Positions 1 to 31,595 are shown, counted from the first letter of the stretch. The stretch: DNA of 64,000 nt from a virus (IMGVR_UViG_3300032138_000524:67841-131840), one strand, 5' to 3'. The notes: generated by a model not told the origin, from the letters alone. Numbers and translations: made by a program.

Positions 1-58
1 TTATGAGAAAATAAAAATGGAAATGAAACAAACAATTAAACACGAGTTTTTTTAAAAG

Positions 59-4242: not shown

Positions 4243-4243
4243 T

Positions 4244-13833: not shown

Positions 13834-13835
13834 AG

Positions 13836-15654: not shown

Positions 15655-15657
15655 AAA

Positions 15658-16083: not shown

Positions 16084-16993
16084 TTTTATTATACCTTTTT
16101 CTACGATAGAAAAAGATAAATTTTTAAACTTAAATGAAAAAGATTCTATATGGGAAGAAAATGATTCTGCTAGTATAATTTTTTCTACAATAAAGACTAT
16201 TAAGAATATTAATACTCTTAAATGTGAAAAGGAAATTTTATTAGTAGATAATAGTCATACATTTCCCGATATAGACTTACCAAATGTGAGAGTAATTAAA
16301 GGATTACAAGCGCTTCCACTCAAAGAACTTGAGAAGATTCCACAATTTATGAACCATAGGGATATACAGTTAAGTTTGGATAATCTTGGTTGTTTGACTA
16401 TGTGGGTATCTATGGCTTTTCACTTGGGAATACAAAAGTCAAAGGGCGATTATATTGTTCTACAACATAATGATACTTTTTATCATCAAGATTGTATTGA
16501 TGAAATGATTGAACATATGGATAAAGAAGAACTCGAATATATTTCAGTCGATAATAAAAAAATATGGATTTCAACTTATCTTTTAAATAAAGAATTTTTG
16601 GATAAATATATTAAAGAGTATTCTTCACAGCCAGTAGTAATACGACCAGAAAATGGAGGATATATAGGAACTAAAAAAATTGGATTTGCAGATGCGTATT
16701 TTTTCTTGTGTAAGAGAAAGTTCTTTGATAATTATAATATAGACTGGTATTATGGAGATACCAATCATGGTGCAACTATTTATTGTCTTGATAATGATTT
16801 AAAATATCTTCATTTGGGTCCTTATTATGATAATCCAAATTGGGAAACAGAAGATACGTTACATACATATTTCTATAAGGATGAGCCATTTCTAACTCAT
16901 CTTAAAGGTGGATTTTCAGAACATAAGATGACATCACCTGATTTTGAAGAAGAATTTAATAAATATTTAAAGGAATTAAAAAGTGCAAATTGA
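16076..16993 (+). CDS. GT2/GT-A glycosyltransferase-like protein
   Basis: ISFIIP, EILLVDNS, GIQKSKGDYIVLQHND. Confidence 0.7.
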   Translation: MISFIIPFSTIEKDKFLNLNEKDSIWEENDSASIIFSTIKTIKNINTLKCEKEILLVDNSHTFPDIDLPNVRVIKGLQALPLKELEKIPQFMNHRDIQLSLDNLGCLTMWVSMAFHLGIQKSKGDYIVLQHNDTFYHQDCIDEMIEHMDKEELEYISVDNKKIWISTYLLNKEFLDKYIKEYSSQPVVIRPENGGYIGTKKIGFADAYFFLCKRKFFDNYNIDWYYGDTNHGATIYCLDNDLKYLHLGPYYDNPNWETEDTLHTYFYKDEPFLTHLKGGFSEHKMTSPDFEEEFNKYLKELKSAN

Positions 16994-17903
16994 ACATACC
17001 TTATGGGTAGAAAAATATAGGCCCATATCACTTGATACTTACATTGGAAATGAACATCTAAAAAGTAAGGTTAAAGTGTATTTGGAGAGTGGAGATTTAC
17101 CACACCTTTTACTTTTTGGGAAGGCTGGTACAGGTAAGACTACTCTCGCAAAATTACTTGTTAATAACATAGATTGTGATCACTTGTATATAAATGCATC
17201 AGATGAGAATAGTGTAGATACGGTTAGGGATAAGGTTAAGAGTTTTGCATCTACACTTGGTTTCAAGGATATGAAAATTGTTATATTGGATGAGTGTGAT
17301 TATATTACACCAAACGCTCAAGCTGCATTAAGAAACCTAATGGAAACATTCAGTAAACATTGTAGGTTTATATTGACTTGTAATTTTGTAGAAAGAATTA
17401 TTGACCCGATACAATCTCGATGTCAATCTTTTCAGGTTATTCCACCCGATAGGAAACAAGTTGCAATTCACCTTAGTAATATATTGACAAGTGAGAATGT
17501 AGAAAGTGAAGTTAGTGATATTGCACTTTTAGTGAATAGTGGATATCCCGATATAAGACGAGTTATCAATTCTGCACAACGACAATCTATTGATGGTAAA
17601 TTGACAATAGATAAACAGAGTATAGTAGAGAATGATTATAAATTAAAGTTATTAGAGATATTAAAGAAACAAGATAAAGCAAGTGCATTTAAAAATATCC
17701 GACAGTTATTGGCAGATAGTCAAGTTAAGGATTATGCAGACTTATTTAGACTACTATATGATGAAGTAGATAGTTATGGTAAGGGACATATAGCTGAATG
17801 TATCTTGGTTATAGCAAAGTATGAATTAAGTGATAGTCAGGTAGTTGATAAAGAAATCAATGCTATGGCTATGATAATAGAATTATTAGGAGTTATAAAA
17901 TGA
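16983..17903 (+). CDS. Clamp loader ATPase subunit (RFC small / T4 gp44-like)
   Basis: LWVEKYRP, GKAGTGKTT, NASD, DECD, SRC motifs; GTG start. Confidence 0.95.
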   Translation: MQIEHTLWVEKYRPISLDTYIGNEHLKSKVKVYLESGDLPHLLLFGKAGTGKTTLAKLLVNNIDCDHLYINASDENSVDTVRDKVKSFASTLGFKDMKIVILDECDYITPNAQAALRNLMETFSKHCRFILTCNFVERIIDPIQSRCQSFQVIPPDRKQVAIHLSNILTSENVESEVSDIALLVNSGYPDIRRVINSAQRQSIDGKLTIDKQSIVENDYKLKLLEILKKQDKASAFKNIRQLLADSQVKDYADLFRLLYDEVDSYGKGHIAECILVIAKYELSDSQVVDKEINAMAMIIELLGVIK

Positions 17904-18074: not shown

Positions 18075-18692
18075 ATGATAGATGAAAAGCATTGGGGTGA
18101 AAAGAAACCACCTGCTAAAAAAGACGTACAGCCACCTAATAGTGGTAAGCCAGAAAAACATATAGCAGTTCATGAGAATAAGATTTATTATTATGCTGGT
18201 GTGAATAGGGAAAGTGCAGCAGAATTAAATAAAAAGATAGGTGAATTAGAAACTAAATGTTTAACACTATGTCATAATTTAGATTTGGAAAAACCACCAA
18301 CACTTAAAGTATTGATAAATTCAGGTGGTGGTTCAATCACCGCTGGTATTTCTTCAATGGATACTATATTAAGATGTAAAGTTCCAGTTGAAACATATGT
18401 AGATGGATTTTGTGCAAGTGCGGCAACATTTCTTTCAGTAGTTGCAAGTCATAGACTTATGAGTAGAAATTCTTATATGTTAATTCATCAATTATCTACA
18501 AATTTTTGGGGAAAGTATTCGGAGTTTGAAGATGAAAAACAGAATCTTGATTTAATGATGGAAACGATTAAAAGGGTGTATAAGGAATTTACAAAGGTTC
18601 CCGAAAAGAAACTTGATGAAATATTGAAACATGATTTGATGTGGGATGCAGAAACTTGTTTAAAATATGGATTAATTGATGAGGTAATTTAA
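18075..18692 (+). CDS. clpP: ClpP-like serine protease
   Basis: INSGGG, CASAA (Ser), LIHQ (His), YGLIDEV. Confidence 0.9.
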   Translation: MIDEKHWGEKKPPAKKDVQPPNSGKPEKHIAVHENKIYYYAGVNRESAAELNKKIGELETKCLTLCHNLDLEKPPTLKVLINSGGGSITAGISSMDTILRCKVPVETYVDGFCASAATFLSVVASHRLMSRNSYMLIHQLSTNFWGKYSEFEDEKQNLDLMMETIKRVYKEFTKVPEKKLDEILKHDLMWDAETCLKYGLIDEVI

Positions 18693-19495
18693 TGAATGTA
18701 TTAGTTATAGGGGATAGTTGTAAGGATGTTTTTATCTATGGAGATATAGAAAGAATAAGTCCTGAAGCACCAATACCAGTTTTTAAACCAACAAGTGAAG
18801 AATCAAATGGTGGTATGGCAAAAAATGTTGCAGATAATGTTGAATCATTAGATATGCACATTCATACTGTAACAAATAAAAATAGTATTACAAAGATAAG
18901 ATTTGTAGAAAATCGTTCCAGCCAAATGGTTTTAAGAGTTGATGAACATGATTATTGTGATAGAATTGATGAATCTTTGTTAGAAGGTCTTGTAAAAAAT
19001 AAATTTAAAAAACCACCATTTGGGTTTGATTCACGTAGAGAAGATTATTATGATGCAATTATTATTTCAGATTATTGTAAAGGGTTTTTAGAAGAATCTG
19101 ATATTCAACATATTTGTAAATATAATAAAAATGTATTCGTGGATACTAAAAAGAAACTTGGTGAATGGATTAACGATGCAGATTTTATTAAGATAAATGA
19201 GTTAGAATACCAGAAGAACCACGAACTGTTATCAGAAAATGGATTTGAAGAAAAACTTATTGTTACATTAGGCAGTAAAGGATGTAGATACAATGGAAAA
19301 GATTTTCCAGTAAAAGAAGTTCCTGTAAAGGATGTGAGTGGAGCAGGAGATACATTTATTGCAGGATTAGTTCGTGGTTATTTAGATACACAAGATATAG
19401 AAAGTGCAATAGAATTTGCACAAAAATGTACAACATTTGTTGTCCAACAACATGGTGTTGCAACAGTTACATTAAAGGAGATAGAAAATGGCTAA
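18692..19495 (+). CDS. rfaE: Heptose-7-phosphate kinase domain (RfaE/HldE domain I, PfkB family)
   Basis: RISPEAPIPV, GGMAKNVA, SDYCKG, DVSGAGDT. Confidence 0.85.
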   Translation: MNVLVIGDSCKDVFIYGDIERISPEAPIPVFKPTSEESNGGMAKNVADNVESLDMHIHTVTNKNSITKIRFVENRSSQMVLRVDEHDYCDRIDESLLEGLVKNKFKKPPFGFDSRREDYYDAIIISDYCKGFLEESDIQHICKYNKNVFVDTKKKLGEWINDADFIKINELEYQKNHELLSENGFEEKLIVTLGSKGCRYNGKDFPVKEVPVKDVSGAGDTFIAGLVRGYLDTQDIESAIEFAQKCTTFVVQQHGVATVTLKEIENG

Positions 19496-19808
19496 AAGAA
19501 AAGCACCACCCCAACCACAAACAGAAGTTCAAGTGGATTTACAAAAGGCGGATACTATAAAATGTGATGATTGTGGAAATTATCTTTTCATTACATCACA
19601 CGTAATTAAAAGGATTTCGCCAATTTTATCACCAACGGGTAAAGAAGCACTTGTACCAGTTCAAGTTTATAGTTGTGGTAATTGTGGTAAAGTTCCGAAG
19701 ATGTTTTTAGAAGGGAGTGGATTGGGTTTAGATGAAGAAATCAATAAACCAAAAGAAGATGCACTTTCACGACCAGATTTAGAATGGGCCGACAGTAAAG
19801 GAATTTAG
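19488..19808 (+). CDS. Zn-ribbon hypothetical protein
   Basis: CDDC and CGNC pairs. Confidence 0.65.
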   Translation: MAKRKAPPQPQTEVQVDLQKADTIKCDDCGNYLFITSHVIKRISPILSPTGKEALVPVQVYSCGNCGKVPKMFLEGSGLGLDEEINKPKEDALSRPDLEWADSKGI

Positions 19809-20536
19809 TGATTAAAAAACTCTATACCATTGGAGACAGTTGGACATATGGAGATGAATTAGAAAATCCTGAAACAGAATGTTATCCGTATTTGTTATCA
19901 CAGGAGTTTAATTGTGAACTTATAAATAAGGCAATATGTGGAGGCCCCAACGATTGGATGTTTAGAAAAACAATAGAATGGGTTTGTAGTCAAGAAAATC
20001 TTGATGATGTGATTGTGATTGTGGGTTGGAGTCCAGTAAATCGTAGAGAAGAAAATTATAAAACTTATCACGGAGCATATCAAGATGATGAAATAGATAA
20101 ATTTATTTTTAGTAAGTTATCAAATAATGAATTAGAACATTATAAGTCAATTTGTTATATGATTTCCTTACAGGAGTTTTTAAAATCTAAAAATGTGAAG
20201 TATTTATTTTATCAGTCGTGGTATGATATACTTGATTGTGAAGAAAAATTACTTAGGGGTAGACAACAACAAGAGAGAATGAAATGGTTATTTAAGAATG
20301 ATGTCAGAGATGATTATGATAAGAGTTGTTATACTAATGAATTAACAATTGGTAAAATTATAGATAAAGTTGATAAAAAATATGTAGTAGGTCCATCGGT
20401 AGATGATGTTAAACGAATAATGAGTGGTATTTATGGTAGAAATAAAGATGGTAAGAAAAAAATGCATCCTAATAAAAATGACCATAAAGTGATGTGTGAA
20501 TTTATTAAGGAAAAGTTAATGGAGTTATATTCATGA
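19808..20536 (+). CDS. SGNH-hydrolase-like protein
   Basis: GDSWTYG, N.A..G.PND, C-terminal HPN; paralog of 29850. Confidence 0.75.
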   Translation: MIKKLYTIGDSWTYGDELENPETECYPYLLSQEFNCELINKAICGGPNDWMFRKTIEWVCSQENLDDVIVIVGWSPVNRREENYKTYHGAYQDDEIDKFIFSKLSNNELEHYKSICYMISLQEFLKSKNVKYLFYQSWYDILDCEEKLLRGRQQQERMKWLFKNDVRDDYDKSCYTNELTIGKIIDKVDKKYVVGPSVDDVKRIMSGIYGRNKDGKKKMHPNKNDHKVMCEFIKEKLMELYS

Positions 20537-21132
20537 TTGATCTTGAAAATATATCGTTAGATATATCCAATTCTTGGGTAGCAAACAATATGTTAACTGA
20601 TGCGAATAGAGGAACTTTTGTTGCTTTTGATTGGAGAAAAGAAGAAGGAGAATATTATTTAACTGAAATTAATACTAATATCGATTTGGGTATATTTGAA
20701 TGTGAATATTTTAAATTTGATGTCTTTATAAAATTTTTAAAAGAGAACAATTTTAACTTCGTGTTGGGATTAAGAAACAATGATTTTTTTAATAATCCAT
20801 CAGAGGAATGGACAGATAAATTAAAGGAATCATTAGAATCTAATGAAATGGAGTATGATGAATATATAACAGATAAATGGCCAAGTCCTATTCCAGACTT
20901 TGATGTACCAGATAATGTTTTTGTTCTAAGATATGCATATGACGAATACTGTAAGGTAGATAAACTTGCATCATCATCATATTCATTTAAAAGTTGGATA
21001 GAAAAGAGTTATTGGAGTGGATACTATAAAAAAATTGAATCTGAAGAAGTAGTAAGAGTTACAGTTTTTTGTAGTATGATAGAAAATTTTATTTTAAAGG
21101 GAAGAACCTATAAGATGTTGTTTAAAAAATAA
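20533..21132 (+). CDS. Hypothetical protein with ATP-grasp-like D...ExN motif near N-terminus
   Basis: FVAFDW...YYLTEINTN. Confidence 0.45.
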   Translation: MIDLENISLDISNSWVANNMLTDANRGTFVAFDWRKEEGEYYLTEINTNIDLGIFECEYFKFDVFIKFLKENNFNFVLGLRNNDFFNNPSEEWTDKLKESLESNEMEYDEYITDKWPSPIPDFDVPDNVFVLRYAYDEYCKVDKLASSSYSFKSWIEKSYWSGYYKKIESEEVVRVTVFCSMIENFILKGRTYKMLFKK

Positions 21133-21141
21133 AAGGATACA

Positions 21142-22314
21142 ATGATAAAATTTTATTTTGATTTAAAGGGTTATATAGAATATAAAGTTTCAGATGAAAT
21201 TAAAAAAATAGAAGTTATTGATCAACAAAAACTTCAAGATGGAATAGAAACATTTCAGGGTGAATTAGATTGGAAAGAAATGTGGACGGTAGATGATTCA
21301 GAAAAACGATTGGAAGATGGTTGGTGGTTTTATGTCGTAGAAAAAGATGATAAATATATTGGTTGGGCGTGGTTTGATACTGAAACAAAAAGGTTTTGTA
21401 ATTTATATGTTCATAAAGATTATAGAGATAGTGGATATGGTAAAGAATTGGTATATGCACGATTGAATGAATGTAAGAAACAAAATATTGAAAAGGTTTG
21501 GATGGAAGTGGATTCTTGGAATATACCTATTCAAAAAATTGGTCAAGAACTTGGATGGACACCAAAGATACATTATACATTTTGGACAGGAGGATATGAT
21601 ACAACTTTTTATGTATGTAAACTTTTGACAGAGGGAGAATTAGTTCAACCTATTTATATTGATGATAGGATAGATCATGGCGGTTATCATGCTAACCCAC
21701 TTATAGTCCAAAGAGGAGAAACTGATAAATATCCAAGAAATTCATTTGATATAGAACAAGAAAGAATGGAGTGGTTACGAAAGAAAATTTATAAAACTAT
21801 TCCAAATTCTGAAGAAAATTTTTTGAAAATGATGTTTATTGATAAACCTATAAATGAATATCCAGAAATAAGTAAAACTGTTGAAAAATATAATGAATGG
21901 ATTCCAGAAACTATACATAAAACTAAAAATAATGAATCATCTTGGTTAGAGGTACAAGCAGATATTGTATTACGATTTCAAAAAGAATTTGGATTGGAAA
22001 TAGAATATCCGATAGAATATATAGAAGATGATTGGTATGAAATCATAGATTGTGCAATAGAAGATGGTAAATTTTATTCTGAAAGGTTACCAGAAAAATA
22101 TAAAGATTTAAAAGTGTTTGGGGGATTTTCTTATCCATCAAGACACTTGACACGAGAAGATATGTTAGAGGTGGCAGAAAAGATGGGGTTTGATGATTTG
22201 TTATATTATACTTGGACGTGTTGGTATCCAACAGATAAAGGTGAACCTTGTGGTAAATGTAAAATATGTAAGGAGAGAATAATAGAATGTCGGAGTATTG
22301 GGGACATCACTTAA
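21142..22314 (+). CDS. GNAT acyltransferase fused to QueC-like PP-loop ATPase
   Basis: LYVHKDYRDSGYG (GNAT); WTGGYDTT PP-loop; TWTCWYP...PCGKCKICKER Zn motif. Confidence 0.8.
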   Translation: MIKFYFDLKGYIEYKVSDEIKKIEVIDQQKLQDGIETFQGELDWKEMWTVDDSEKRLEDGWWFYVVEKDDKYIGWAWFDTETKRFCNLYVHKDYRDSGYGKELVYARLNECKKQNIEKVWMEVDSWNIPIQKIGQELGWTPKIHYTFWTGGYDTTFYVCKLLTEGELVQPIYIDDRIDHGGYHANPLIVQRGETDKYPRNSFDIEQERMEWLRKKIYKTIPNSEENFLKMMFIDKPINEYPEISKTVEKYNEWIPETIHKTKNNESSWLEVQADIVLRFQKEFGLEIEYPIEYIEDDWYEIIDCAIEDGKFYSERLPEKYKDLKVFGGFSYPSRHLTREDMLEVAEKMGFDDLLYYTWTCWYPTDKGEPCGKCKICKERIIECRSIGDIT

Positions 22315-22646
22315 TACTTGATTGTAAATCAGGTAGTAAGAAGTTAATTAGTGATAAACAAAATCTAAAAAATTTTGTTGATGAACTTGTGAATAGAATA
22401 GATATGGTCGCTGTCGGTGAACCAATTATAAAATATCTGGCTTCTAATGCCGTGGATAAGGCGGGATATAGTCTTGTTCAATTAATAGAGACAAGTTCTA
22501 TTGTTGGACATTTTATAAACAGTAGTGGTGATTTTTATTTAGATGTATTTAGTTGTAAAGAATTTGAAATAGAGAAGGTTACAGAGTGTGTGGATCAATT
22601 TTTTTCACCGCTTGAAACAAAAAGTAGATACTTATTAAGAGAATAA
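22287..22646 (+). CDS. speD: S-adenosylmethionine decarboxylase proenzyme
   Basis: GHHLILDC, GYSLVQLIETSSI.GH, YLDVFSCK. Confidence 0.85.
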   Translation: MSEYWGHHLILDCKSGSKKLISDKQNLKNFVDELVNRIDMVAVGEPIIKYLASNAVDKAGYSLVQLIETSSIVGHFINSSGDFYLDVFSCKEFEIEKVTECVDQFFSPLETKSRYLLRE

Positions 22647-22663
22647 AATAAGGAGAAGTTACA

Positions 22664-23485
22664 ATGAATAAAATAATAAGGTTATTGTTGATAGGAATGG
22701 TTTCAATACTATCAGCCCAAACCGCAACAATCAAAAATAGTATAGTAGGATATTCTACATTAGGAGATACAGTTTCTTTTGATAAACCATATCTTTGGTC
22801 ATTCATTAAAAGTGATGATTCAAAATGGATGGCATCAATATTTGTAGAAGCACCTTGGAGTGACGAGTCAGTATATGTTGAGGAGTTGTTCTATAAACCG
22901 TATAGTGATAAATTTACTATTGGTTTAGGACGACAGGCAATTCCATTTGGTTCTAATGTTCCATATCTTGATTTAACAAGAGGAGATAAGTTTACTTATC
23001 AGACACCAACAGAACACGATGTTGGTTTGTTATATTTTGGTGATGGAGTTAGTGCATATGGTGGAATTGGAGATTTCTTTATTGAAACATATTATGGTTC
23101 AGATATTGAAAATGGTTGGGAATCACTTTCAACTGCCCGATTAAGTTATGAATGGAAAGACCACTTTGTAGGATTTTCATATGATAATCAAGAACGGGCG
23201 GTAATTGATGTAAGTGGATATACTAAATATGTTGATTATGTTAGTGAAGTTAGTTTAGTTAATGACTATCAATGGATTAGAGCAATAGTGAAACCTGGTT
23301 TGTATGGTGTTTCTTTATTGACGGGATATGAAATAACTAATGGTGAAAGTCAGGCACTTTATGGTCTTGTGTGGCAATATGGAGAACCTAATCGTTTCCT
23401 TTCCGCTGAATTAAGTGGTGAAGGTGATGTAAGGGTTAAATTGTATTATGGTTTTAACTTAAATATAGGAAAAGAAAATGAATAA
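22664..23485 (+). CDS. Secreted beta-barrel/porin-like protein
   Basis: Signal peptide, GRQAIPFG motif, amphipathic aromatic-rich beta strands. Confidence 0.6.
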   Translation: MNKIIRLLLIGMVSILSAQTATIKNSIVGYSTLGDTVSFDKPYLWSFIKSDDSKWMASIFVEAPWSDESVYVEELFYKPYSDKFTIGLGRQAIPFGSNVPYLDLTRGDKFTYQTPTEHDVGLLYFGDGVSAYGGIGDFFIETYYGSDIENGWESLSTARLSYEWKDHFVGFSYDNQERAVIDVSGYTKYVDYVSEVSLVNDYQWIRAIVKPGLYGVSLLTGYEITNGESQALYGLVWQYGEPNRFLSAELSGEGDVRVKLYYGFNLNIGKENE

Positions 23486-24386
23486 GTTTTTAAAAGGATT
23501 TTTAGCAATAACAGCTGCAGTATTCGCTTGGTCAACCCTTGAGGTTACTGGTAGTTTTATATTCGCTGAAGGAGCAGGACCCGTATCGGTATTGTCGGTT
23601 AGATTTCTAATCGCCACACTATTGTTTGCTGGGGTAATGTTATGGAAGAAACAAACAACAGGTGAAAATCTATTCGCCGTGGAAAAGGAAGATAGGAAGA
23701 AATTTCTATTAAATGGTGTAATATTGGCAGCACACTTGTTAGTGTATTGGTTCGCTTGGGAATTACTCGACCCGAACCTACCTGTTATTTACGCACTATT
23801 CTATATATATCCATTTATATTGTGTTTGATTTCCATATTTTACTATGGAGAGAAGTTCAGTAAAAATAGAAAACTCGCATTAGGATTGGGAACTCTTGGT
23901 TGTGCGTTCGCTATTGAATTGATACCAGCATTCTCACTTGAAGCCCTAAACACCAAAGGTGTATTATTGGGTGTGGCAGCTGGATTATCTTGGGTAGCAT
24001 ACTTGTTAGTAGGACAAGACATAATGAGAAAATATAAACCACTTACGATTGTATTTTATGACTTTCTACAAGTGTTTGTTTATGTTTCATTATTCCAATC
24101 CCCCATGACAACACTTTCAGAGGTAACATTTAACGGATTACTGGCAATCACTTACATTTCAGTAGTGGCAAGTTTTATTGCTTATCTATGTTATTGGATA
24201 GCAGTTAAGAATATTGGAGCAACCAACACAGGAATTGCTGAATTGGGAACACCGATATTTGGAGTAACACTCGGTTACTTTTTCTTAGCTATGTCACCAT
24301 CATTGTGGCAGATAGCTGGACTTGTGATGATTTCAAGTGGATTGTACTTAATCTACAATGAAAAACAAGTCGTATATGACCAATGA
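23478..24386 (+). CDS. EamA/DMT family transporter
   Basis: About 10 hydrophobic helices, two EamA repeats, RFLIA and PIFGVTLGYFFL. Confidence 0.9.
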   Translation: MNKFLKGFLAITAAVFAWSTLEVTGSFIFAEGAGPVSVLSVRFLIATLLFAGVMLWKKQTTGENLFAVEKEDRKKFLLNGVILAAHLLVYWFAWELLDPNLPVIYALFYIYPFILCLISIFYYGEKFSKNRKLALGLGTLGCAFAIELIPAFSLEALNTKGVLLGVAAGLSWVAYLLVGQDIMRKYKPLTIVFYDFLQVFVYVSLFQSPMTTLSEVTFNGLLAITYISVVASFIAYLCYWIAVKNIGATNTGIAELGTPIFGVTLGYFFLAMSPSLWQIAGLVMISSGLYLIYNEKQVVYDQ

Positions 24387-25098
24387 TCCTCAAATCTATG
24401 ATCCCCTTATAATTGAATTAGATGAATATTTAGATTTATCTAATTTTAATTTATGTGTTCAAGAGTTTAAAGATACATTTGATAAAATACCGAATGATTA
24501 TATAACTATTGGCCAATTTACTCCAGATGCATCAGTTGAAGATCCAGTTGATGCTAAAACAATTAATTTAAGAGTACTTAAAAATTATGAAGATAGGAAT
24601 GATTGGTCTTTAATTGATAAAGAGGAAAGGTTTAAAGATGGATTTACTTATAACTTATTTCCAAACATTAGAGAATTTGTTTCCCAGTTACCATTTAAAA
24701 GTATAGGTAGAATCTTTATCAGTTTTACAGAAAATGGAACAGACATAACACCACACGCTGGATTTACTCCAGAAGTTCAAAAGACTTGGAGACAAGAATT
24801 CTTGTGGTTTAGTTTGATTGGTAATAAAAGAATGTGGGCTACTAACTATGACAATACTTTGGAATTCTATAAAAATGGTTTTGTATTAGAGGATAGATTT
24901 GAAAAAGTATATTCTAAGGGAATATCTTGTAGATTTAATCCAGTTATGTTACATGGCGTAAAATGTGGAGATGATTTTTCTGCAAGTTTAAGAGTAGATG
25001 GAGAATATACAAGAGAGTTTAGGAAAAAGATATTTGGTGACGGTGAGTGGAGAACAGAATTTACTCATGTAGATGAAAAACATTTACGGAGTAATTAG
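24376..25098 (+). CDS. Asp/Asn beta-hydroxylase-like double-stranded beta-helix oxygenase
   Basis: LPFKSIGRI, ITPH, LHGV, SLRVDG; paralog of 30515, but the HxD Asp is replaced (PHAG). Confidence 0.55.
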   Translation: MTNDPQIYDPLIIELDEYLDLSNFNLCVQEFKDTFDKIPNDYITIGQFTPDASVEDPVDAKTINLRVLKNYEDRNDWSLIDKEERFKDGFTYNLFPNIREFVSQLPFKSIGRIFISFTENGTDITPHAGFTPEVQKTWRQEFLWFSLIGNKRMWATNYDNTLEFYKNGFVLEDRFEKVYSKGISCRFNPVMLHGVKCGDDFSASLRVDGEYTREFRKKIFGDGEWRTEFTHVDEKHLRSN

Positions 25099-25100
25099 GT

Positions 25101-25601
25101 ATGACCAATGATGAAAAATATATATTAGAATGGTATAGAAATAAAATATGGGCAAAACCATTTCTATCTAAAATATGTAATGGAATTGGAATGATTGCCA
25201 TTCGTGATATACCTAAAGGAACGAGTATATTTGATTTAGCAGAAAAGAGTGTATACGGTTGGATTCCTTGGGGCAAGGCAAGGTCAATACCAAGAGAAGT
25301 TTTAGAATGGGTATTGGAGTGTCAACCACAACTTGGTGATAAAGTGGTGGATGTTGAAACACTACATAATGAATTTTTCAATGATGAACATGAATCTATG
25401 TTTGGATATACACAACAAGGAATGAATTGGCAAACAACTTGGTATTACGTTAACCATTCATCAGACAATTCTAATGTAGCTGCACATTCAACTGGTCATC
25501 CAAGAGTTCAAAAGTATATCACTCTTAAAGATATTTATAAGGGAGAAGAAATATTAGAGGATTATAATGGATATACAAAAGAATGGAAATTAGATATTTA
25601 G
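25101..25601 (+). CDS. SET-domain protein-lysine methyltransferase
   Basis: GIGMIAIRDIPKG, YVNHS, KDIYKGEEILEDY. Confidence 0.85.
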   Translation: MTNDEKYILEWYRNKIWAKPFLSKICNGIGMIAIRDIPKGTSIFDLAEKSVYGWIPWGKARSIPREVLEWVLECQPQLGDKVVDVETLHNEFFNDEHESMFGYTQQGMNWQTTWYYVNHSSDNSNVAAHSTGHPRVQKYITLKDIYKGEEILEDYNGYTKEWKLDI

Positions 25602-26425
25602 ATTTAAAAGAAATTTCACCTGAGGTTTATACATCACTTTGGGAATACGATAGAGTTATTCAACTTGAAGAACCAACTTTTATAAAATTTTCCCCAAAAG
25701 ATACAATTATTCAGTTTTGGCAAGGCCCATATTGGGATAGTGGTAGTGAATCTTGGAAAGAAGATTATACCAATATGGAAGTGTTTTATAATTCAGATAT
25801 TATCCGTGATGAGATTAAAACAAGGTGTTATATTCCGATTGAAATTCCATATAGTGCAGATGTATCATATTATATAGCATCCAAATATGGAACAGATTTT
25901 ATTGTATTTGTGCCCAATTCAAATATACAGAAGAGGTCTGAATTAGATTCTGTTTTTAGACATTTACTTTCTGATTTAATAACCAATAGAAATATTAAAA
26001 GTAAAGTAGAAGGTAATGATGTTTTTTATGAAAAAGATGGTATGTTTAAAAAGTTTTCAGGATCTATATATAGACCAGCAAGTAATGAATATGGATATGT
26101 TGATAATGGGATAACCTATAAATTTAATTCTGAGTTGGCTAATAGATTAAGAAGAGTAAAAACTGATGGCATTAATATTAAAAAATTTGAAGTAGATGAT
26201 ATATCAGATGCGGTAGGTGGGCTATGGGAAGTAGATCCTACTATAGATAGAGATAAATTAGATTTTGAAGTAGTTCAAGAAATGTCAAATCATTTAGGAT
26301 ATACGATAAGACATGATATTTTGACAAATAAAGAAGAAGATTTATTATTTGAGAGAGGACATAGGAGAATGACAGAAAAAGAATGGTATTTATATGGGAA
26401 TAATGACATATTTGATATTTATTAG
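25583..26425 (+). CDS. Lipoate-protein ligase (BPL/LplA/LipB) homologue
   Basis: GNDV...KKFSGS motif and C-terminal EWYLY; RR.SGGG motif absent. Confidence 0.6.
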   Translation: MEIRYLDLKEISPEVYTSLWEYDRVIQLEEPTFIKFSPKDTIIQFWQGPYWDSGSESWKEDYTNMEVFYNSDIIRDEIKTRCYIPIEIPYSADVSYYIASKYGTDFIVFVPNSNIQKRSELDSVFRHLLSDLITNRNIKSKVEGNDVFYEKDGMFKKFSGSIYRPASNEYGYVDNGITYKFNSELANRLRRVKTDGINIKKFEVDDISDAVGGLWEVDPTIDRDKLDFEVVQEMSNHLGYTIRHDILTNKEEDLLFERGHRRMTEKEWYLYGNNDIFDIY

Positions 26426-26446
26426 TGAAATAAATTGGGAAAATAA

Positions 26447-26851
26447 ATGGATTTTAAAATAAATAATACATTTCGATACATATCAAGCAGTTCACTGGAT
26501 GATGTTATATATTCTGTTAGGTATTCTTTTGAAGAAAGTGGTTCTTCAGAACACACCACACTTTTGAATTATGAAACTCGTAGATTTTTTCATAATTGTG
26601 ATCCAGTTACTTATGAAAATTTTGTAGCATTTAATACTGCTACTTCATCATTGAAGGACTGGGTTCAGAGTTCACACGGAGAAAATTGGGGTTCATTTAC
26701 TGCGAGTGTTCAAACTTCGATGACTAACGCATTAAATTCCAGAACTTCTTCACCACCTACCGATGTAATGACTTGGAATTCTGGATCATTGGTATTGGAT
26801 GTTAAAGAAATAACAAGTGGGAGCCAACGCTCGGGCGAAGAATCGGAATAA
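26447..26851 (+). CDS. Ser/Thr-rich small protein, possibly virion/tail-associated
   Basis: LDDVIYSV and NFVAF...LKDWV pattern reminiscent of small phage tail-fibre-associated proteins; about 29% Ser+Thr. Confidence 0.55.
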   Translation: MDFKINNTFRYISSSSLDDVIYSVRYSFEESGSSEHTTLLNYETRRFFHNCDPVTYENFVAFNTATSSLKDWVQSSHGENWGSFTASVQTSMTNALNSRTSSPPTDVMTWNSGSLVLDVKEITSGSQRSGEESE

Positions 26852-26863
26852 CAGACCTTAATA

Positions 26864-28051
26864 ATGAGTAATTTACCAAAAGGTCAATGTTATACAGGTT
26901 ATTTGTTTGCTAGATTAGACGCGGGCGGTAACTATCATATTTGTTGTGGATCTATACCAGAAGGTGGTTCATATAAAGAAGATGGAAGATTTTTAAAGTA
27001 TTGGAAATCTGATAAACTTAAAAAGTTATTACATGGATTAAAAACAAATTTATTAAAATATAATTCTATGTGGGATAATGCATGTGATGATTGTCCTCAT
27101 GTTGTAAGTAATAATGAGATATATGACCACTTAGATGGTGTAAGAGAGTTGCCTAAAGAGTATGCAATGGATACTTATCTCGAATCATTTAAATCTGATG
27201 ATTTTACATTAGCTCCTGTATCTTTTTCTTTTGAGATTATAAATTCTTGTGACCATAGATGTAATTTTTGTTGGAATTGGTCATATGATATGTTAGATAA
27301 TAACGCACAATGGCCCGAGTGGAAATCTTGGACAAAAGAAAAAATATCATTTAAGATATTCAAAGAAACGATAGATGATTTAATAGAACTTGGTAGTCCA
27401 GCACCATTTGGTAGTGGACAGGGTGGATGTGAAGATATATTGATTTGTGGTGGTGGAGAACCATTTTTACATCCACAAATTATGGATATGGTATCTCATG
27501 TTAAGAATAATAATTTTTATTGTCAAGTTACAACAAATTTTAGTAATAGTATTACAGATGAAATAATAGACGAATTGATAGAATTACAGGCAAATCAATT
27601 AATAATCAATACTTCAGCAGGGACAGAAGAAACTTATTGTAAAACGAGAAAAGTTAAAAAATCAGCATGGGATAAGTTATTACATAATTTAAATTATATT
27701 AGTAATAGAAAGAAAGAAGTTGATTCGGTGAATCCAGAAGTTATAACTAAGTTTATTTTGACAAGAACAAATGTTCATGAGATAAGTGAAATGATAGATT
27801 TGGCAATTAAAACAAAAGCGGATACAATTACATTTAAAAGGTTTTTAGTAAATGATGTTTATAGTGGAAAAAATTTGACAGTAACAGATGAACAATATAA
27901 TAAATTTCGTCCAATTTTAGAGGATAAAATGGAACAATATGAATTTGAAAAAATAATAGACTATAATGGAATGTATAATTTTAATTATGTATCAAAAAAA
28001 TATAATGTTACTTTAAGAAGTGATATAACTGGATTTTTTAGTAATTCATGA
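26864..28051 (+). CDS. Radical SAM protein with N-terminal SPASM domain
   Basis: CYTG...ICC...CDDC, then CDHRCNFC, GGGEPFL, TTN. Confidence 0.85.
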   Translation: MSNLPKGQCYTGYLFARLDAGGNYHICCGSIPEGGSYKEDGRFLKYWKSDKLKKLLHGLKTNLLKYNSMWDNACDDCPHVVSNNEIYDHLDGVRELPKEYAMDTYLESFKSDDFTLAPVSFSFEIINSCDHRCNFCWNWSYDMLDNNAQWPEWKSWTKEKISFKIFKETIDDLIELGSPAPFGSGQGGCEDILICGGGEPFLHPQIMDMVSHVKNNNFYCQVTTNFSNSITDEIIDELIELQANQLIINTSAGTEETYCKTRKVKKSAWDKLLHNLNYISNRKKEVDSVNPEVITKFILTRTNVHEISEMIDLAIKTKADTITFKRFLVNDVYSGKNLTVTDEQYNKFRPILEDKMEQYEFEKIIDYNGMYNFNYVSKKYNVTLRSDITGFFSNS

Positions 28052-29262
28052 AAGAACAACGAAATATTTGGACAGATGTAAATGGTGAAAAGTTATCCAT
28101 GTGGACTGGTGAAGAATTGCCAATGTCAGAAGATAGCAAAGCTTATTGGGGATATAAACGAGAATATGGGTTTGGTCTTATGAATGTAGGAACACCATGT
28201 AATACTAAATGTTTTTATTGTTCTCAATATTGGAATCCACCTGATTTATTGGTGACTTATGGTAGTTGGCTCAGTATGGATCAGATAAAACATTTTCTTT
28301 CCTTTGTGCCATCAGATAAAGTAATTCATGCAATTGGATATGGACACCATGTAAATAATGGAGAGTTTTTTGCACATCCTAAGTCACTTGAGATAATGGA
28401 ATATTTACGAGATAATTATTATATTGTTAAGAACTTTGATACTAATGGGCATGATATAACTGAGGATCATGTAAAGGTATTAGCAGAATTAAAAAATAGT
28501 GCTTGGGGTGAAGATAGACATACAAGTTACTTATTCGGTGGCACAATATTCTGGGGTATTTATTTACATCTTACTAATTGGAAAAGAACAGAACCCACCT
28601 TAAAATTGTTAAATGAATATGATATACCCTTTCAGTGCACTATTGTACCATCACGAAAAGAAATTGAGATAGGTAGGATGGAAACTTGGATATCAAATTT
28701 ACAAAAATATAAACCAGAAGATATAGAAATTTCAATGCCGGCCTATACTAAATATACACCAGATAATATAGCGTATTTGATGGATTTGTCTTTTGATGAG
28801 ATGTGGCCAATCATTGATGGTTGGAGAGAAAAATACCCAGATGTAAAGATAACTTCTGAATCAACTATAAATATTGAACATATTCATAACGCATTGACTT
28901 GGTTAGAGTCTACCTATGCTGGAACAAAATCTAAACCACTTTTTTTGACATCAGAAGCAGTAGAGGGTGTTTTTGAAACAGAAGTCAAAAAACTTCAACG
29001 TGTTAGACACACATATAAGAGATTTGATGAGTATAGAGTTGTTACAACAAAAAATCATACATTCGGGGGTAATATTAAAGTAGGTGGTTTATTGTTGGTA
29101 GAAGATTATGATATAGCAATTGAGGAAACTTTATCAACTGGATATAAACCAGATTTAATTGTTATGCCAAAAACAAGTTATTGTTTTGATGATTTAGATT
29201 TAAGAGGAATTTCAGCACATAGTTTAGAAAAGAAATATGGGATTGAAGTTATATGGTGTTAG
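28048..29262 (+). CDS. Radical SAM protein with DUF512-like C-terminus
   Basis: CNTKCFYC; NHTFGGNIKVGGLLL..D C-terminal motif. Confidence 0.75.
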   Translation: MKEQRNIWTDVNGEKLSMWTGEELPMSEDSKAYWGYKREYGFGLMNVGTPCNTKCFYCSQYWNPPDLLVTYGSWLSMDQIKHFLSFVPSDKVIHAIGYGHHVNNGEFFAHPKSLEIMEYLRDNYYIVKNFDTNGHDITEDHVKVLAELKNSAWGEDRHTSYLFGGTIFWGIYLHLTNWKRTEPTLKLLNEYDIPFQCTIVPSRKEIEIGRMETWISNLQKYKPEDIEISMPAYTKYTPDNIAYLMDLSFDEMWPIIDGWREKYPDVKITSESTINIEHIHNALTWLESTYAGTKSKPLFLTSEAVEGVFETEVKKLQRVRHTYKRFDEYRVVTTKNHTFGGNIKVGGLLLVEDYDIAIEETLSTGYKPDLIVMPKTSYCFDDLDLRGISAHSLEKKYGIEVIWC

Positions 29263-29275
29263 GAAAAATTAAATA

Positions 29276-29857
29276 ATGAAGGTTTTTGAAATTGGAAAGA
29301 TGAAAACAGGTACTACGTCACTTGGTCGGGCTTTTGAAATTTTAGGATATAAACATAAAGGGTGGTCTTTAAAAATTTATAATCAATTTCTTGAATCAGA
29401 TAAAAAAGATTATAAAATTTTATATGAGGTTATTGATAATTATGATACATTTGTAGATGCCCCATGGCGTAGTTGTGATTATAAAATATTAGATAAGAAA
29501 TATCCCAATAGTAAATTTATTTTATTAGAAAGGGATGGTGAAAGTTGGATTAGAAGCATGGAACATTGGAGTTCACCAGAGTTAAATAAAGATTGGGAAA
29601 CGTGGCCAACTGAATTTGATAGAAGTGGAATAGATAAAAGATGGGTAACAGATAGAGATAATTTAATTAAAGAAAAGTTAGATAGTAAAAAATTACATTA
29701 TAGTGAAAGAAAAAAATATTTTAAAGATAGACCAAATGATTTATTGGTAATGAATATTTGTGATGATGAAGGGTGGGGAGTATTGTGTCCATTTTTAAAT
29801 AAACCAATTCCAAATGTTACATTTCCCAAAGAAAATATTAGTGAAAATTATGAGTAA
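29276..29857 (+). CDS. Sulfotransferase-family protein
   Basis: IGKMKTGTTSL, GWGVLCPFL; paralog of 9472. Confidence 0.8.
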   Translation: MKVFEIGKMKTGTTSLGRAFEILGYKHKGWSLKIYNQFLESDKKDYKILYEVIDNYDTFVDAPWRSCDYKILDKKYPNSKFILLERDGESWIRSMEHWSSPELNKDWETWPTEFDRSGIDKRWVTDRDNLIKEKLDSKKLHYSERKKYFKDRPNDLLVMNICDDEGWGVLCPFLNKPIPNVTFPKENISENYE

Positions 29858-30518
29858 AATTTTATATACGATTGGAGATAGCTTTACATATGGAGATGAA
29901 TTAGAAAATCCCGAAACAGAATGTTATCCATATCTTTTATCTAAAAAACTTGGGTGTGAGTTGGTAAATGAAGCATTGCCAGGAGCATCTAATGATTGGA
30001 TGTTTAGAAAAACTGTTCAATGGATTTCTAATAAAAATTTGGATGATATTTTTATGGTTATAGTTGGGTGGAGTAATCCACATAGAAGAGAAGAAAATTT
30101 TGAATTTTATTGGGGTGGCTCTGATAAGTATTTTGATAGATGGAATTGGTGGAATCAAGGAGAACATAAAACAATATCTAAATTTATTAGTAAATATTTG
30201 TGGAATACACGATTATCATGTTTTAAATCATTTACTTATATGTTAACCTTACAAGAGTTTTTAAAATCTAAAAATATAAAATATTTGTTTTATGATCCAT
30301 ATGCAAATATATTGATAAAAGATGATTGGTATTACGAAAATGTGGCAGATATGAAAAACGTTGTTGATAATATAGATAAAAGATTTTATGTTGGTCCTGA
30401 GATTGATGGTAGATGTATCGTTGAAGGTCAGACAAAAGAAAATAATGTTACTGGTAGACATCCAAATGTGGATGAACACAAATGGTTATCAGAAAAATTA
30501 TATGAAATTATATCATGA
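29850..30518 (+). CDS. SGNH-hydrolase-like protein
   Basis: GDSFTYG, GASND, HPN; paralog of 19808. Confidence 0.75.
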   Translation: MSKILYTIGDSFTYGDELENPETECYPYLLSKKLGCELVNEALPGASNDWMFRKTVQWISNKNLDDIFMVIVGWSNPHRREENFEFYWGGSDKYFDRWNWWNQGEHKTISKFISKYLWNTRLSCFKSFTYMLTLQEFLKSKNIKYLFYDPYANILIKDDWYYENVADMKNVVDNIDKRFYVGPEIDGRCIVEGQTKENNVTGRHPNVDEHKWLSEKLYEIIS

Positions 30519-31162
30519 ATAAAAGTTTGATTGAATTAGATGAGTATTTAGATTTATCTAAATTGGAGTTGATTAATAAAGAATTTATAGATTCTATTCA
30601 TAAAATACCAAAAAAATATATTGAAGATTTTACAGCAAATAAAAGTCATTTGAGATATAAAAATACTAAACAAGAAGGTGAAACACAAACAGTAATTTTA
30701 AGAGATGTTATTCCTGAATATTATAAAATATTCAATTATTCTATGATAGATAAGTCTGATTATTGGATGGACGATTTAATATATGATTATTTTCCACTTT
30801 TAAAACAGTTTGTATCAAATTTACCATTTAAGAATATTGGAAGATTTTTTTTCATTTTCAATGAGAATACAGCAGAACCAATACTTCATGTAGATCACGG
30901 AAAAAAAGAATGGCGACAAGAAATGATATGGATATCTCTGAGTAACAGCAGAAAATTGTTCGTTATGGAAAATAATAAACCTATTTATATGAAAGGATAT
31001 TCGTGTTGGTTCGATAGTACTAAAGTACATGGTTGTAAAACAAATGGGTATGGTGTTAGTATAAGAATTGATGGGGAATTTAAATCTGATTTTAGAAGAA
31101 AACTATTTGGTAAAAATTCAAAATGGAAAACTATACCGATAATGGATAAATATGAAGAATAA
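30515..31162 (+). CDS. Asp/Asn beta-hydroxylase-like 2OG-Fe(II) oxygenase
   Basis: LHVD, VHG, SIRIDG; paralog of 24376. Confidence 0.6.
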   Translation: MNKSLIELDEYLDLSKLELINKEFIDSIHKIPKKYIEDFTANKSHLRYKNTKQEGETQTVILRDVIPEYYKIFNYSMIDKSDYWMDDLIYDYFPLLKQFVSNLPFKNIGRFFFIFNENTAEPILHVDHGKKEWRQEMIWISLSNSRKLFVMENNKPIYMKGYSCWFDSTKVHGCKTNGYGVSIRIDGEFKSDFRRKLFGKNSKWKTIPIMDKYEE

Positions 31163-31595
31163 AGGTCTATTCGACCACGTTACACACATTACACAAAAAC
31201 AGACCAAAGGTTATTGGGATTCTCTAAACGAAACAGAGAAGAAGCAGTGGTCTAACTATATGATACATAGATTTCTATCTATGAAGATGGAATATGTTGA
31301 TGTGGTAAATGAAATTCAGAGATACAATCTTAAACCAAAAGATTTGTATAAATTATATACCAATGTTCTTCCAAAGAAGAAAGAATGGTTAAAATATGTT
31401 AAAGGAAAGAAGAATATGAAACACCCAAAATGGTTATTAGAAATAGTATCAAAATACTATGAATCAAGTCTTACAGAGGCACAAGAATATGCAGAAGTAT
31501 TTTATTCAACAGAACAAGGTAAGGCAAATCTAAAAACAATACTCCAAAAATATGGAGTAGATCCAAAGGAAATCAAGAAACTAAATCTACCCTAA
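31152..31595 (+). CDS. Clamp loader small subunit (T4 gp62-like)
   Basis: LFDH, YMIHRFLS, VNEIQ, LPKKK.W.KY, A.EY pattern. Confidence 0.7.
   Translation: MKNKGLFDHVTHITQKQTKGYWDSLNETEKKQWSNYMIHRFLSMKMEYVDVVNEIQRYNLKPKDLYKLYTNVLPKKKEWLKYVKGKKNMKHPKWLLEIVSKYYESSLTEAQEYAEVFYSTEQGKANLKTILQKYGVDPKEIKKLNLP

Follow-up and report, generated by a model that had tools for sequence, protein, structure and literature searches.

T4-like myophages of the ocean, as described for cyanomyophages and pelagimyophages, carry islands of auxiliary metabolic genes (AMGs) in which a conserved frame of core genes encloses a non-syntenic, cassette-variable insert that changes gradually by the gain and loss of cassettes and includes genes for radical SAM enzymes, oxygenases, sulfo- or glycosyltransferases, and transport (PMC7029224). 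We analyzed an 11-kb island of 15 genes that resembles them in these respects and lies on IMGVR_UViG_3300032138_000524:67841-131840, a 64,000-nt window that forms the second half of a 131,840-bp IMG/VR virus record and whose positions are used as coordinates throughout. Unlike the described islands, it sits between the clamp-loader genes gp44 and gp62 instead of the tail fiber-associated "host recognition cluster", belongs to another phage lineage, and contains a constant unit of a porin-like protein, an EamA permease, and an LplA-like ligase for which we found no description in the literature on such islands. Individual parts of its cargo further recall the LplA salvage enzymes, the glutathionylspermidine, trypanothione, and eukaryote-type glutathione synthetases, the QueC homologues of antiphage defense, and radical SAM/SPASM cassettes for ribosomally synthesized and post-translationally modified peptides (RiPPs). 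Mosaic hot spots for cassettes are known from phage genomes, and it is the content of this one that is unusual. New are the invariant porin-like/EamA/LplA-like unit and a second unit composed of a protein that we call X199 and an interchangeable adenylase with its GNAT domain; for both, we infer the chemistry, the targets, and the direction of transport.

A cassette hot spot between gp44 and gp62

The best explanation is a recombination hot spot that separates gp44 from gp62 in a lineage of uncultured low-GC marine T4-like phages and whose cargo, represented by this region, is a mosaic of exchangeable cassettes. Taken jointly with the mechanism proposed below for the core unit, we give this explanation roughly even chances of being correct. 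Related loci were gathered with three queries, i.e., one of the two radical SAM genes of the island (rSAM1, yielding nine IMG/VR loci), an alignment of X199 (22 loci), and an alignment of the LplA-like protein (61 metagenome loci), and the IMG/VR loci were dereplicated to 17 islands for a gene census. All related loci share a common frame composed of gp44, ClpP, PfkB, and Zn ribbon genes to the left and of gp62 and a methylase-like gene to the right. Within this frame, X199 is found in 16/17 IMG/VR islands and GNAT-QueC in 11/17, followed in frequency by DUF6071 genes (10/17, at variable positions), the porin-like, EamA, SET, and LplA-like genes (the identical 8/17 islands and always in one fixed order), the sulfotransferase (7/17), a small protein of 134 residues (p134; 6/17), rSAM1 and SpeD (5/17 each), and the second radical SAM gene, rSAM2, which occurs in a minority of islands (3/17). 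The same locus with overlapping gene sets is seen in dozens of independent metagenome contigs, which argues that the island is not a chance arrangement.

An earlier note on this DNA had viewed all 15 genes as one pathway for the modification of proteins or peptides. Most of them assort independently among related phages, an outcome that the note had named as counting against its reading, with SpeD, p134, both radical SAM genes, the sulfotransferase, the DUF6071 genes, the putative hydroxylases, and the SET gene all coming and going between islands. The comparison of gene neighborhoods across the 17 IMG/VR islands and 61 metagenome loci bore out the linkage of the porin-like, EamA, and LplA-like genes, whereas most others are inherited separately. 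Islands without this block carry a TonB-dependent receptor, B12-binding radical SAM enzymes, Sulfotransfer_2, up to three 2-oxoglutarate (2OG)-Fe(II) oxygenases, one bona fide Asp_Arg_Hydrox protein, and a family of 450 to 900 aa (f90) with an X199-like domain, some members of which have inteins. Intein/HINT domains were seen in large X199-like proteins at L014:11075-12946 and L021:5284-7056, and the TonB-dependent receptor (Plug and beta-barrel) at L020:12450-14819, also found in L004, is a second type of outer membrane transport cargo at this locus.

The mosaic structure is also visible in the window itself. Its arms are 85-91% identical at the nucleotide level to loci L001/L002, whereas its center from GNAT-QueC to the LplA-like gene (21.1-26.4 kb; 21142-26406) shows 78-80% nucleotide identity to L008/L027 and 65-68% to L001, and the EamA permease is 99% identical in amino acid sequence to that of L027 with 59-86% for the neighboring genes. 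With arms that match one island type and a center that matches another, the window is itself a recombinant of the two. This mosaic is stable and widespread, since 97-99% of the sampled words of 21142-27000 are present in 14 marine DNA runs from around 10 studies. RNA libraries of two studies contain exact-match contigs over SpeD and across the junction of p134 and rSAM1 as well as close-variant contigs over EamA; they reach scattered parts of the island only, the uncovered parts being uninformative, and are compatible with transcription, though DNA carry-over may also account for them. One RNA-library contig (X15; depth 2.5, with 34 letters on its shorter side) joins 19696 to 31248 and thereby omits 11,551 bases or approximately the whole island; its source may be a relative whose site is unoccupied, for which it is weak evidence. 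Scans for sigma-70-like promoters gave no more matches in the region than in shuffled sequence, and no convincing terminator was found inside the island. The top + strand match (26321-26348; TTGACA-16-TATTAT, 11/12) lies within the LplA-like gene, around 100 nt upstream of p134.

In T4, gp44 and gp62 are neighbors. Here, they are parted by genes for ClpP, the PfkB kinase, the Zn ribbon, X199, and further cargo, all of them, like the clamp-loader genes themselves, encoded on the + strand. On the left side, the gp44-like clamp-loader large subunit (16983..17903; Pfam AAA, DNA_pol3_delta2, and Gp44_lid) is kept in all related loci and followed by a ClpP-like protease of the hot-spot backbone that is present in nearly all of them (18075..18692; Pfam CLP_protease, 92 bits; NCBIfam ClpP/head-maturation-protease-related). 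The next backbone gene encodes a PfkB-family sugar kinase (18692..19495; Pfam PfkB, 74.6 bits) that is closest to the heptose-7-phosphate kinase domain of HldE (NCBIfam rfaE_dom_I, E = 2.6e-38, under the curated cut-off), and a Zn-ribbon protein with two CxxC pairs (19488..19808; 71-95% conserved in all related loci) forms the left edge of the variable cargo. The right boundary is set by the gp62-like clamp-loader small subunit (31152..31595; phrog_225, E = 4e-16; 50-97% conserved in all related loci) and followed by the methylase-like gene (start 31595; N6_N4_Mtase-like, with a Pfam match under the threshold). A second ClpP-like paralogue is encoded at 32689-33300, so that the pair (ca. 30% identical) flanks the hot spot, with the gene for the clamp-loader small subunit between the two copies. 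The G+C content of the window is around 30%, and nearly all genes lie on the + strand. Since gp44 shares 40-48% of its residues with the clamp loaders of T4-like and jumbo phages, with 48% as the maximum against deposited phages, and none of 50,697 phage records matched in a DNA search for near-identical sequence, we assign the virus to an undescribed marine T4-like lineage. CheckV estimates the 131,840-bp record to be 63% complete, which sets the scope of every absence from the record reported below.

Much of what the earlier note had said about the layout and the gene families of the island holds. The co-directional run is composed of 15 + strand open reading frames (ORFs) at 19808-31162 with gaps or overlaps of at most 21 nt, called at exactly the coordinates given before, and is inserted between core genes (gp44, ClpP, PfkB, and Zn ribbon to the left; gp62 to the right). 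Family assignments, based on Pfam, PHROGs, and NCBIfam scans of the window proteins, agree for the DUF6071 proteins with their SGNH-like motifs, GNAT-QueC, SpeD, EamA, SET, both radical SAM enzymes, and the sulfotransferase, and structure models agree for the LplA and permuted ATP-grasp folds, whereas the "porin" and "hydroxylase" labels are unproven with no family match above threshold. The genes starting at 20533 (X199), 22664, 24358, 30515, and 25583 have no match in these three collections, and p134 (start 26447) has none besides its PHROGs family, phrog_7802.

The porin-like, EamA, and LplA-like core unit

The porin-like, EamA, and LplA-like genes are the sole strictly linked unit of the island. 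A hidden Markov model (HMM) census that included the metagenome loci detected 66 full-length LplA-like genes (41 clusters at 95% identity; 30-100% identical to that of the window), every one of which sits in the gp44-gp62 locus, and in 24/24 clusters with enough upstream sequence (30-100% identity), the porin-like and EamA genes precede it in the same order. A SET gene accompanies the ligase in 17/25 LplA clusters and is missing in 8/25, while the slot after EamA is occupied by an oxygenase-like gene (nine cases), a DUF1989 gene (seven), a sulfotransferase (one), or nothing. Starts and stops of the genes in the core unit overlap.

The first protein (22664..23485) is always encoded directly upstream of, and overlapping with, EamA and has a signal peptide-like N-terminus, no further hydrophobic segment, and an outer membrane-like composition of its mature part (10.3% glycine, 9.5% serine, 9.1% tyrosine, and 17% aromatic residues). 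It lacks a C-terminal aromatic residue and has no match in Pfam, NCBIfam, PHROG, or the PDB, so that we refer to it as a putative porin. The second (23478..24386) is an inner membrane permease of the EamA/DMT type with two repeats (Pfam EamA, 99.7 bits), and the curated family nearest to it is NCBIfam 2A78, a family of carboxylate/amino acid/amine transporters that it matches at a sub-threshold score. Alignment scans of genome contigs found no bacterial relatives of either protein and hence no clue to a host or donor.

The third core protein (25583..26425) has no credible match in Pfam or in sequence and profile searches of the PDB but adopts an LplA fold according to its AlphaFold2 (AF2) model, which was made from a 24-homologue alignment with a mean predicted local distance difference test (pLDDT) score of 91.6. 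A Foldseek search of the PDB with this model listed 1x2g first (E = 3.7e-15; template modeling score 0.60), then LipB, and then biotin ligases at lower scores, while a search of the ESM Atlas with the 280-aa protein yielded no more than an LplA lead below 0.9, and only four viral structure models are similar to it. Like LplA of E. coli and Thermoplasma, the phage protein keeps the G-N-D and K-x-x-G motifs, which are invariant among 24 sequences (the latter as K157-K-F-S-G160-S, with the equivalence of K157 to K133 of E. coli, the lysine to which the acyl-adenylate binds, drawn from the motif and not from residue-level superposition), and the salvage logic of an externally acquired carboxylic acid would fit the linked transport pair. 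It differs from these enzymes in its low sequence identity of 12-14%, the missing Pfam match, the absence of the lipoate-binding RRxxGGG loop (or any GGG) from both its sequence and the family consensus, and the constant presence of porin-like and EamA genes, frequently joined by SET, alongside its own.

Two further genes are embedded in this unit. The SET-domain methyltransferase (25101..25601; Pfam SET, 36.4 bits at a cut-off of 22.4) is frequent but dispensable, overlaps with the LplA-like gene, and has intact motifs (VNHSS for NHS and EEILEDY for EExxxDY). In the variable slot after EamA, the window encodes a putative oxygenase-like protein with a 2-His (HxG...H) pattern (hyd1; 24358..25098) for which alignments show invariant H133, H199, and R212. 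A second such protein with an HxD...H pattern, hyd2 (30515..31162; detected by alignment), is an accessory gene in the last slot before gp62 that in other islands is taken by a bona fide Asp_Arg_Hydrox protein (26.5 bits). Across this family, H133 and H199 are invariant, and the motif reads HxG in proteins like hyd1 and HxD in those like hyd2, a pattern that alone is non-diagnostic. One of 28 members matches Asp_Arg_Hydrox (E = 0.013), and the scan of the phage's own genome gave 12 bits, all sub-threshold; alignment by hhalign to the neighboring 2OG, phrog_2954, 193-aa, and Asp_Arg_Hydrox families was not significant (probability ≤6%), the family profile had no credible match among PDB sequences, and no PF13640 oxygenase was found in the 132-kb record.

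Most likely, the core unit couples carboxylate transport to ATP-dependent ligation. During infection, the two membrane proteins would let a small carboxylate pass through both membranes of the host, and the LplA-like enzyme, by analogy to LplA, LipB, and biotin protein ligases (BPLs), would adenylate this acid with ATP and pass it to an amine, most likely that of a protein lysine. The acyl group is probably not lipoate, and the SET and oxygenase-like proteins, where present, may act on the same or a neighboring target. To our knowledge, all characterized LplA, LipB, and BPL enzymes and SET domains act on proteins. The view that the island contains families of protein modifiers is borne out by SET with its NHS and EExxxDY motifs, by the LplA fold with K-x-x-G, and by a GNAT domain whose closest PDB match is a protein acetyltransferase. 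Of the import module suggested before, the link of the transport pair to the LplA-like ligase stands, whereas the flow may run inward or outward.

Several points weigh against this mechanism. The co-occurrence counts come from one phage lineage and are not phylogenetically independent, and the identities of the porin and the oxygenases are putative. Among bacterial EamA/DMT proteins, most of those characterized export their substrates, and the substrate here may likewise move outward. In contrast to lipoate salvage, the 132-kb record yielded neither a lipoyl/biotinyl (Biotin_lipoyl) nor a GcvH (GCV_H) acceptor domain. The paralogy of sulfotransferase, radical SAM, and DUF6071 genes with a glycan-type island further upstream, together with the HldE-like kinase of the backbone, points to carbohydrate substrates for part of the cargo.

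X199 and its interchangeable adenylases

The second unit begins with X199 (20533..21132), a part of the lineage backbone with 344 homologues that are all unannotated marine sequences. No sequence-level family or PDB profile match was found for it, and the ESM Atlas returned noise only (DDE transposases). Its AF2 model (pLDDT 84) suggests a minimal permuted ATP-grasp-like fold of the glutathione/glutathionylspermidine synthetase type, which at the level of the fold agrees with its earlier annotation. The VIA comparison placed eukaryote-type glutathione synthetase (GS) first (Z 10.2; 184-188 of 199 residues aligned, with a root-mean-square deviation of 3.7 for 184 residues), followed by YgiC, glutathionylspermidine synthetase (GspS), and trypanothione synthetase (TryS; Z 8.8-7.7), with the next unrelated chain at Z 4.7; all six chains with Z ≥8 are of the permuted GS/GspS class, while Foldseek alone was weak (E = 3e-3). 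X199 thus resembles these enzymes over nearly its whole length, keeps their E-x-N metal motif as an invariant E45-x-N47 near the N-terminus, and, as in polyamine metabolism, adjoins GNAT and SpeD-family genes. It differs from GspS, TryS, and GS by its size of 199 residues compared to 370-600, an identity of around 9%, and the lack of the lid and substrate domains. As it reaches less than half the size of any characterized ATP-grasp ligase, X199 may not be catalytic alone.

In 13/17 islands, X199 is followed by an adenylate-forming enzyme and a GNAT domain, and this enzyme comes in three unrelated types. The first is a QueC-family PP-loop ATPase, fused to GNAT in eight islands, as it is in the window (21142-22314), and encoded apart from GNAT in L009; the second is a class II aminoacyl-tRNA synthetase-like core fused to GNAT (L012:9760-11172 and L022:10558-12003); and the third is an ANL AMP-binding enzyme followed by GNAT (L020:10582-12071 and L004). 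Such non-homologous replacement at a fixed position suggests a conserved task, i.e., the activation of a carboxylate and acyl transfer to an amine, and the acyl group would then differ between phages.

The GNAT-QueC fusion of the window (21142..22314; Pfam GNAT, 46 bits, and QueC, 24 bits; phrog_1550) has Pat acetyltransferase and QueC as its PDB profile matches. Its PP-loop reads TGGYDTT and its zinc motif C-x9-C-x2-C-x2-C compared to SGGxDS and C-x8-C-x2-C-x2-C of QueC, with the Pfam QueC match (23.9 bits) covering the last ca. 50 residues only and the NCBIfam QueC score reaching 19.7 bits at a cut-off of 150. Because neither TGT/DpdA nor QueD was found in the 132-kb record, this QueC-family ATPase without a preQ0 pathway should have a function other than queuosine synthesis. 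Among QueC homologues in antiphage defense, Cap9 of type IV CBASS and QatC of QatABCD act on protein N-termini (PMC13279940, 10.1101/2025.04.06.647259). The phage enzyme shares with them the QueC-family PP-loop ATPase, a canonical-type zinc motif, and the lack of a preQ0 pathway but differs in being phage-borne and fused to GNAT, in having a short Pfam match and no Cap10/TGT or QatA/B/D partners, and in its replacement by non-homologous adenylating enzymes in related phages.

Directly downstream lies a homologue of the SpeD-family pyruvoyl decarboxylases of AdoMetDC class 1b (22287..22646; Pfam AdoMet_dc, 60.7 bits) that follows GNAT-QueC in most islands and is missing in some. The spacing of S70, H75, and C90, its triad for processing and catalysis, equals that of S63, H68, and C83 in SpeD of Thermotoga maritima (PMC10407285), with threonine instead of glutamate before the serine. 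Phage SpeD homologues have repeatedly turned into arginine or ornithine decarboxylases (PMC9992855, PMC10407285), and no aminopropyltransferase or spermidine synthase was found in the 132-kb record, so that the supposed supply of decarboxylated S-adenosylmethionine (dcSAM) to the pathway is unproven. An apparent co-occurrence of SpeD with rSAM1 (5/5 IMG/VR islands) was dismissed as a sampling artifact, as SpeD is found without rSAM1 once metagenome islands are added.

Together, X199, the adenylase-GNAT pair, and the SpeD-like protein would either produce or attach an N-acylated amine, the acyl group of which varies by phage. More speculatively, the porin-like, EamA, and LplA-like proteins, accompanied or not by SET and by an oxygenase or DUF1989 protein, could form a new phage acylation system that imports a carboxylic acid other than lipoate and joins it to lysine residues in proteins of the host or the phage, while the mini ATP-grasp protein and its swappable adenylase-GNAT partner would diversify a second N-acyl modification in the manner of an arms race. 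We put this combined scenario forward as a tentative possibility.

The island may instead be a small-molecule factory in which an amine provided by the SpeD-like protein (dcSAM, agmatine, or putrescine) is N-acylated by X199, the QueC-like adenylase, GNAT, and the LplA-like enzyme and tailored by SET, the oxygenases, the sulfotransferase, and the radical SAM enzymes before EamA and the outer membrane protein export the resulting conjugate of a polyamine or amino acid, which would act outside the infected cell or detoxify the cell. The similarity of X199 to glutathionylspermidine, trypanothione, and glutathione synthetases fits this scenario, as does gene order, in that SpeD follows X199 and the GNAT enzyme without interruption in the window as well as in L002, and the three are near one another in most other islands. 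Polyamine genes are documented in phages, including SpeD homologues, spermidine N-acetyltransferases, and GspS-containing clusters (PMC9992855). The best curated relative of the permease moves carboxylates, amino acids, and amines. Many EamA proteins are known to export their substrates. We nevertheless find this scenario rather doubtful given the missing aminopropyltransferase, the absence of SpeD from some islands in which every other part is present (L006, L015, and L011), the protein-directed nature of all characterized LplA, LipB, BPL, and SET enzymes, and the small size of X199 with its implications for catalysis.

QueC fusions, radical SAM enzymes, GNATs, and decarboxylases also occur in known phage pathways of DNA hypermodification. 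With the island placed between clamp-loader genes in the replication module and N6_N4_Mtase-like genes found at 1590 and 31595, deazaguanine-type or aminoacyl/polyamine-type bases in the phage's DNA come to mind as products. This idea appears exceedingly improbable, because the membrane proteins, SET, and the LplA-like ligase do not fit it, the methylase matches are under the Pfam thresholds, and thymidylate synthase-type hydroxymethylases were, just like TGT/DpdA and QueD, not found in the record.

Optional cargo and the upstream glycan-type island

The remaining genes, i.e., p134, the two radical SAM genes, and a trio of sulfotransferase, DUF6071, and oxygenase-like genes, are optional extras. 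The small protein p134 (26447..26851; phrog_7802) is rich in serine and glycine, single-copy in the 132-kb record, and has no fixed position in the island. It is followed by rSAM1 (26864..28051; Pfam Radical_SAM, 45.4 bits), a radical SAM enzyme with an N-terminal cysteine-rich (twitch/SPASM-like) region and sub-threshold NCBIfam matches to SPASM/twitch maturases, another copy of which lies between ClpP and PfkB in other phages, and by rSAM2 (28048..29262), a radical SAM-like protein with CxxxCxxC at residues 51-58 and a DUF512-like C-terminus (sub-threshold matches to Radical_SAM and DUF512). Searches by tblastn of 50,697 phage records found no match for p134, a relative of p134, or rSAM2 and only two weak ones for rSAM1, and a scan of IMG/VR with rSAM2 gave no match.

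In the earlier note, p134 was the candidate substrate of a RiPP-like or virion protein hypermodification pathway that would employ both radical SAM enzymes along with the remaining tailoring enzymes of the island. This idea draws on the placement of a small gene right before the radical SAM genes, seen in the window and the loci most similar to it, on the auxiliary cysteine-rich region of rSAM1, on the RNA-library contig that spans the p134/rSAM1 junction in two studies, on the best sigma-70-like match (11/12; 26321-26348) located just upstream of p134, and on the established presence of protein modifiers among SET, LplA, GNAT, and SPASM/twitch radical SAM families. In contrast to RiPP cassettes, the cysteine-rich region of rSAM1 is N-terminal (twitch-like, as in its paralogue at 568-1590), and no RiPP recognition element (RRE) or PqqD domain was matched in it by Pfam or NCBIfam, though divergent RREs can escape such searches. 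At 134 aa, p134 is far above the typical size of precursors and is conserved from its first residue over the whole length instead of showing a leader and a variable core; an HMM search of 1.84 billion representatives found 28 p134 clusters, and many shorter relatives end in a conserved ...PW. It precedes rSAM1 in one clade only, i.e., the window and its closest relatives, lies between DUF6071 and GNAT-QueC in L008, L015, L027, L061, L065, L076, and L081, and occurs without rSAM1 in four of these islands (L015, L061, L065, and L081). Considering also the separate assortment of the genes and the promoter-like matches that are no commoner than in shuffled sequence, a single RiPP-like pathway for the 15 genes is unlikely, and the version with p134 as the shared substrate appears very improbable; the seeming pair of precursor and radical SAM gene probably reflects no more than a chance local gene order.

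What recurs near p134 are instead QueC-family genes and oxygenases, not radical SAM genes. In a second T4-like lineage (L034:4060-11283 and the syntenic L035-L048), a relative of p134 directly follows three tail fiber-type genes and is itself followed by phrog_2954, a 2OG-Fe(II) oxygenase, and endonuclease V, with a QueC-like PP-loop gene in 7/15 contigs. This gene is only distantly related to that of the window going by its hhalign comparison with the QueC-like domain, in which the PP-loop alone aligns at a probability of 48%. A tail fiber-associated role of p134 is therefore at least as likely as one as a substrate, given that these other phrog_7802 members follow tail fiber genes. The predicted complex of GNAT-QueC with p134 scored 0.00, which gives no verdict for or against binding. 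In one relative (L076:1-9900), DUF6071 is present five times and p134 twice in tandem upstream of GNAT-QueC, which shows that the two families have been amplified locally and jointly.

The island begins and nearly ends with DUF6071 proteins that have the SGNH-like motifs GDS, GxND, and D-x-H, the first at its left edge (19808..20536; Pfam DUF6071, 47 bits) and the second (29814..30518; 54.7 bits) between the sulfotransferase (29276..29857; Pfam Sulfotransfer_4, 107.6 bits) and hyd2. Some of these accessory genes have counterparts in the 16 kb upstream of the hot spot (window positions 1-16993), which form a glycan-type island. It encodes a shikimate kinase-like P-loop kinase (start 59), a paralogue of rSAM1 with an N-terminal SPASM/twitch region (N_Twi_rSAM; 568-1590), an N6_N4_Mtase-like gene (start 1590; Pfam match under the threshold), a GNAT (start 5281), glycosyltransferases of three families (starts 5762, 10017, and 16076), MORN-repeat proteins (starts 7221, 11543, and 12799), WbqC (start 8263), a DegT-family ORF of 200 aa (8886-9488) whose match to the 360-position model is confined to positions 163-241 and which is perhaps a truncated or split gene, and a Sulfotransfer_4 paralogue (9472-10020) with 51% identity to the sulfotransferase of the hot spot.

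These neighbors raise the question of whether both islands form one toolkit for envelope or glycan remodeling that tailors host lipopolysaccharide, capsule, or virion glycans, e.g., for superinfection exclusion, to which the hot spot would contribute its sulfotransferase, SGNH-like esterases, oxygenases, QueC-family amidoligase, and HldE-like kinase. Besides WbqC, DegT, the glycosyltransferases, GNAT, and the sulfotransferase and radical SAM paralogues upstream, this idea is consistent with the relationship of the backbone PfkB protein to heptose-7-phosphate kinase and with Sulfotransfer_2, Asp_Arg_Hydrox, and 2OG oxygenases in related islands. For pelagimyophage islands, glycosyltransferases have been proposed to modify surfaces (PMC7029224), and the O-antigen amidotransferase WbpG is a member of cluster 5 of the QueC family (PMC13329287). 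However, the zinc motif of the QueC-like enzyme in the window is of the canonical, protein-modifying type and not that of WbpG, and the transport pair with the LplA-like core and SET has no known role in glycan synthesis. Glycosyltransferases, which had already been reported as missing from the 15 ORFs, are absent from the island in the Pfam scan together with flippases and polymerases. We thus consider a glycan toolkit unlikely as an explanation and prefer to view the island as a mosaic of exchangeable cassettes around the core unit of transport and ligation.

Hypervariable islands of marine T4-like phages are well known, yet the roles of their cargo mostly are not. Our analysis narrows the puzzle of an 11-kb, 15-gene island down to two tractable units, the porin-like/EamA/LplA-like unit and X199 with its interchangeable adenylase-GNAT partner. 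Either of them could reveal a new modification of proteins or metabolites by phages that are widespread in the ocean, with the variant described here present in around 10 marine studies.

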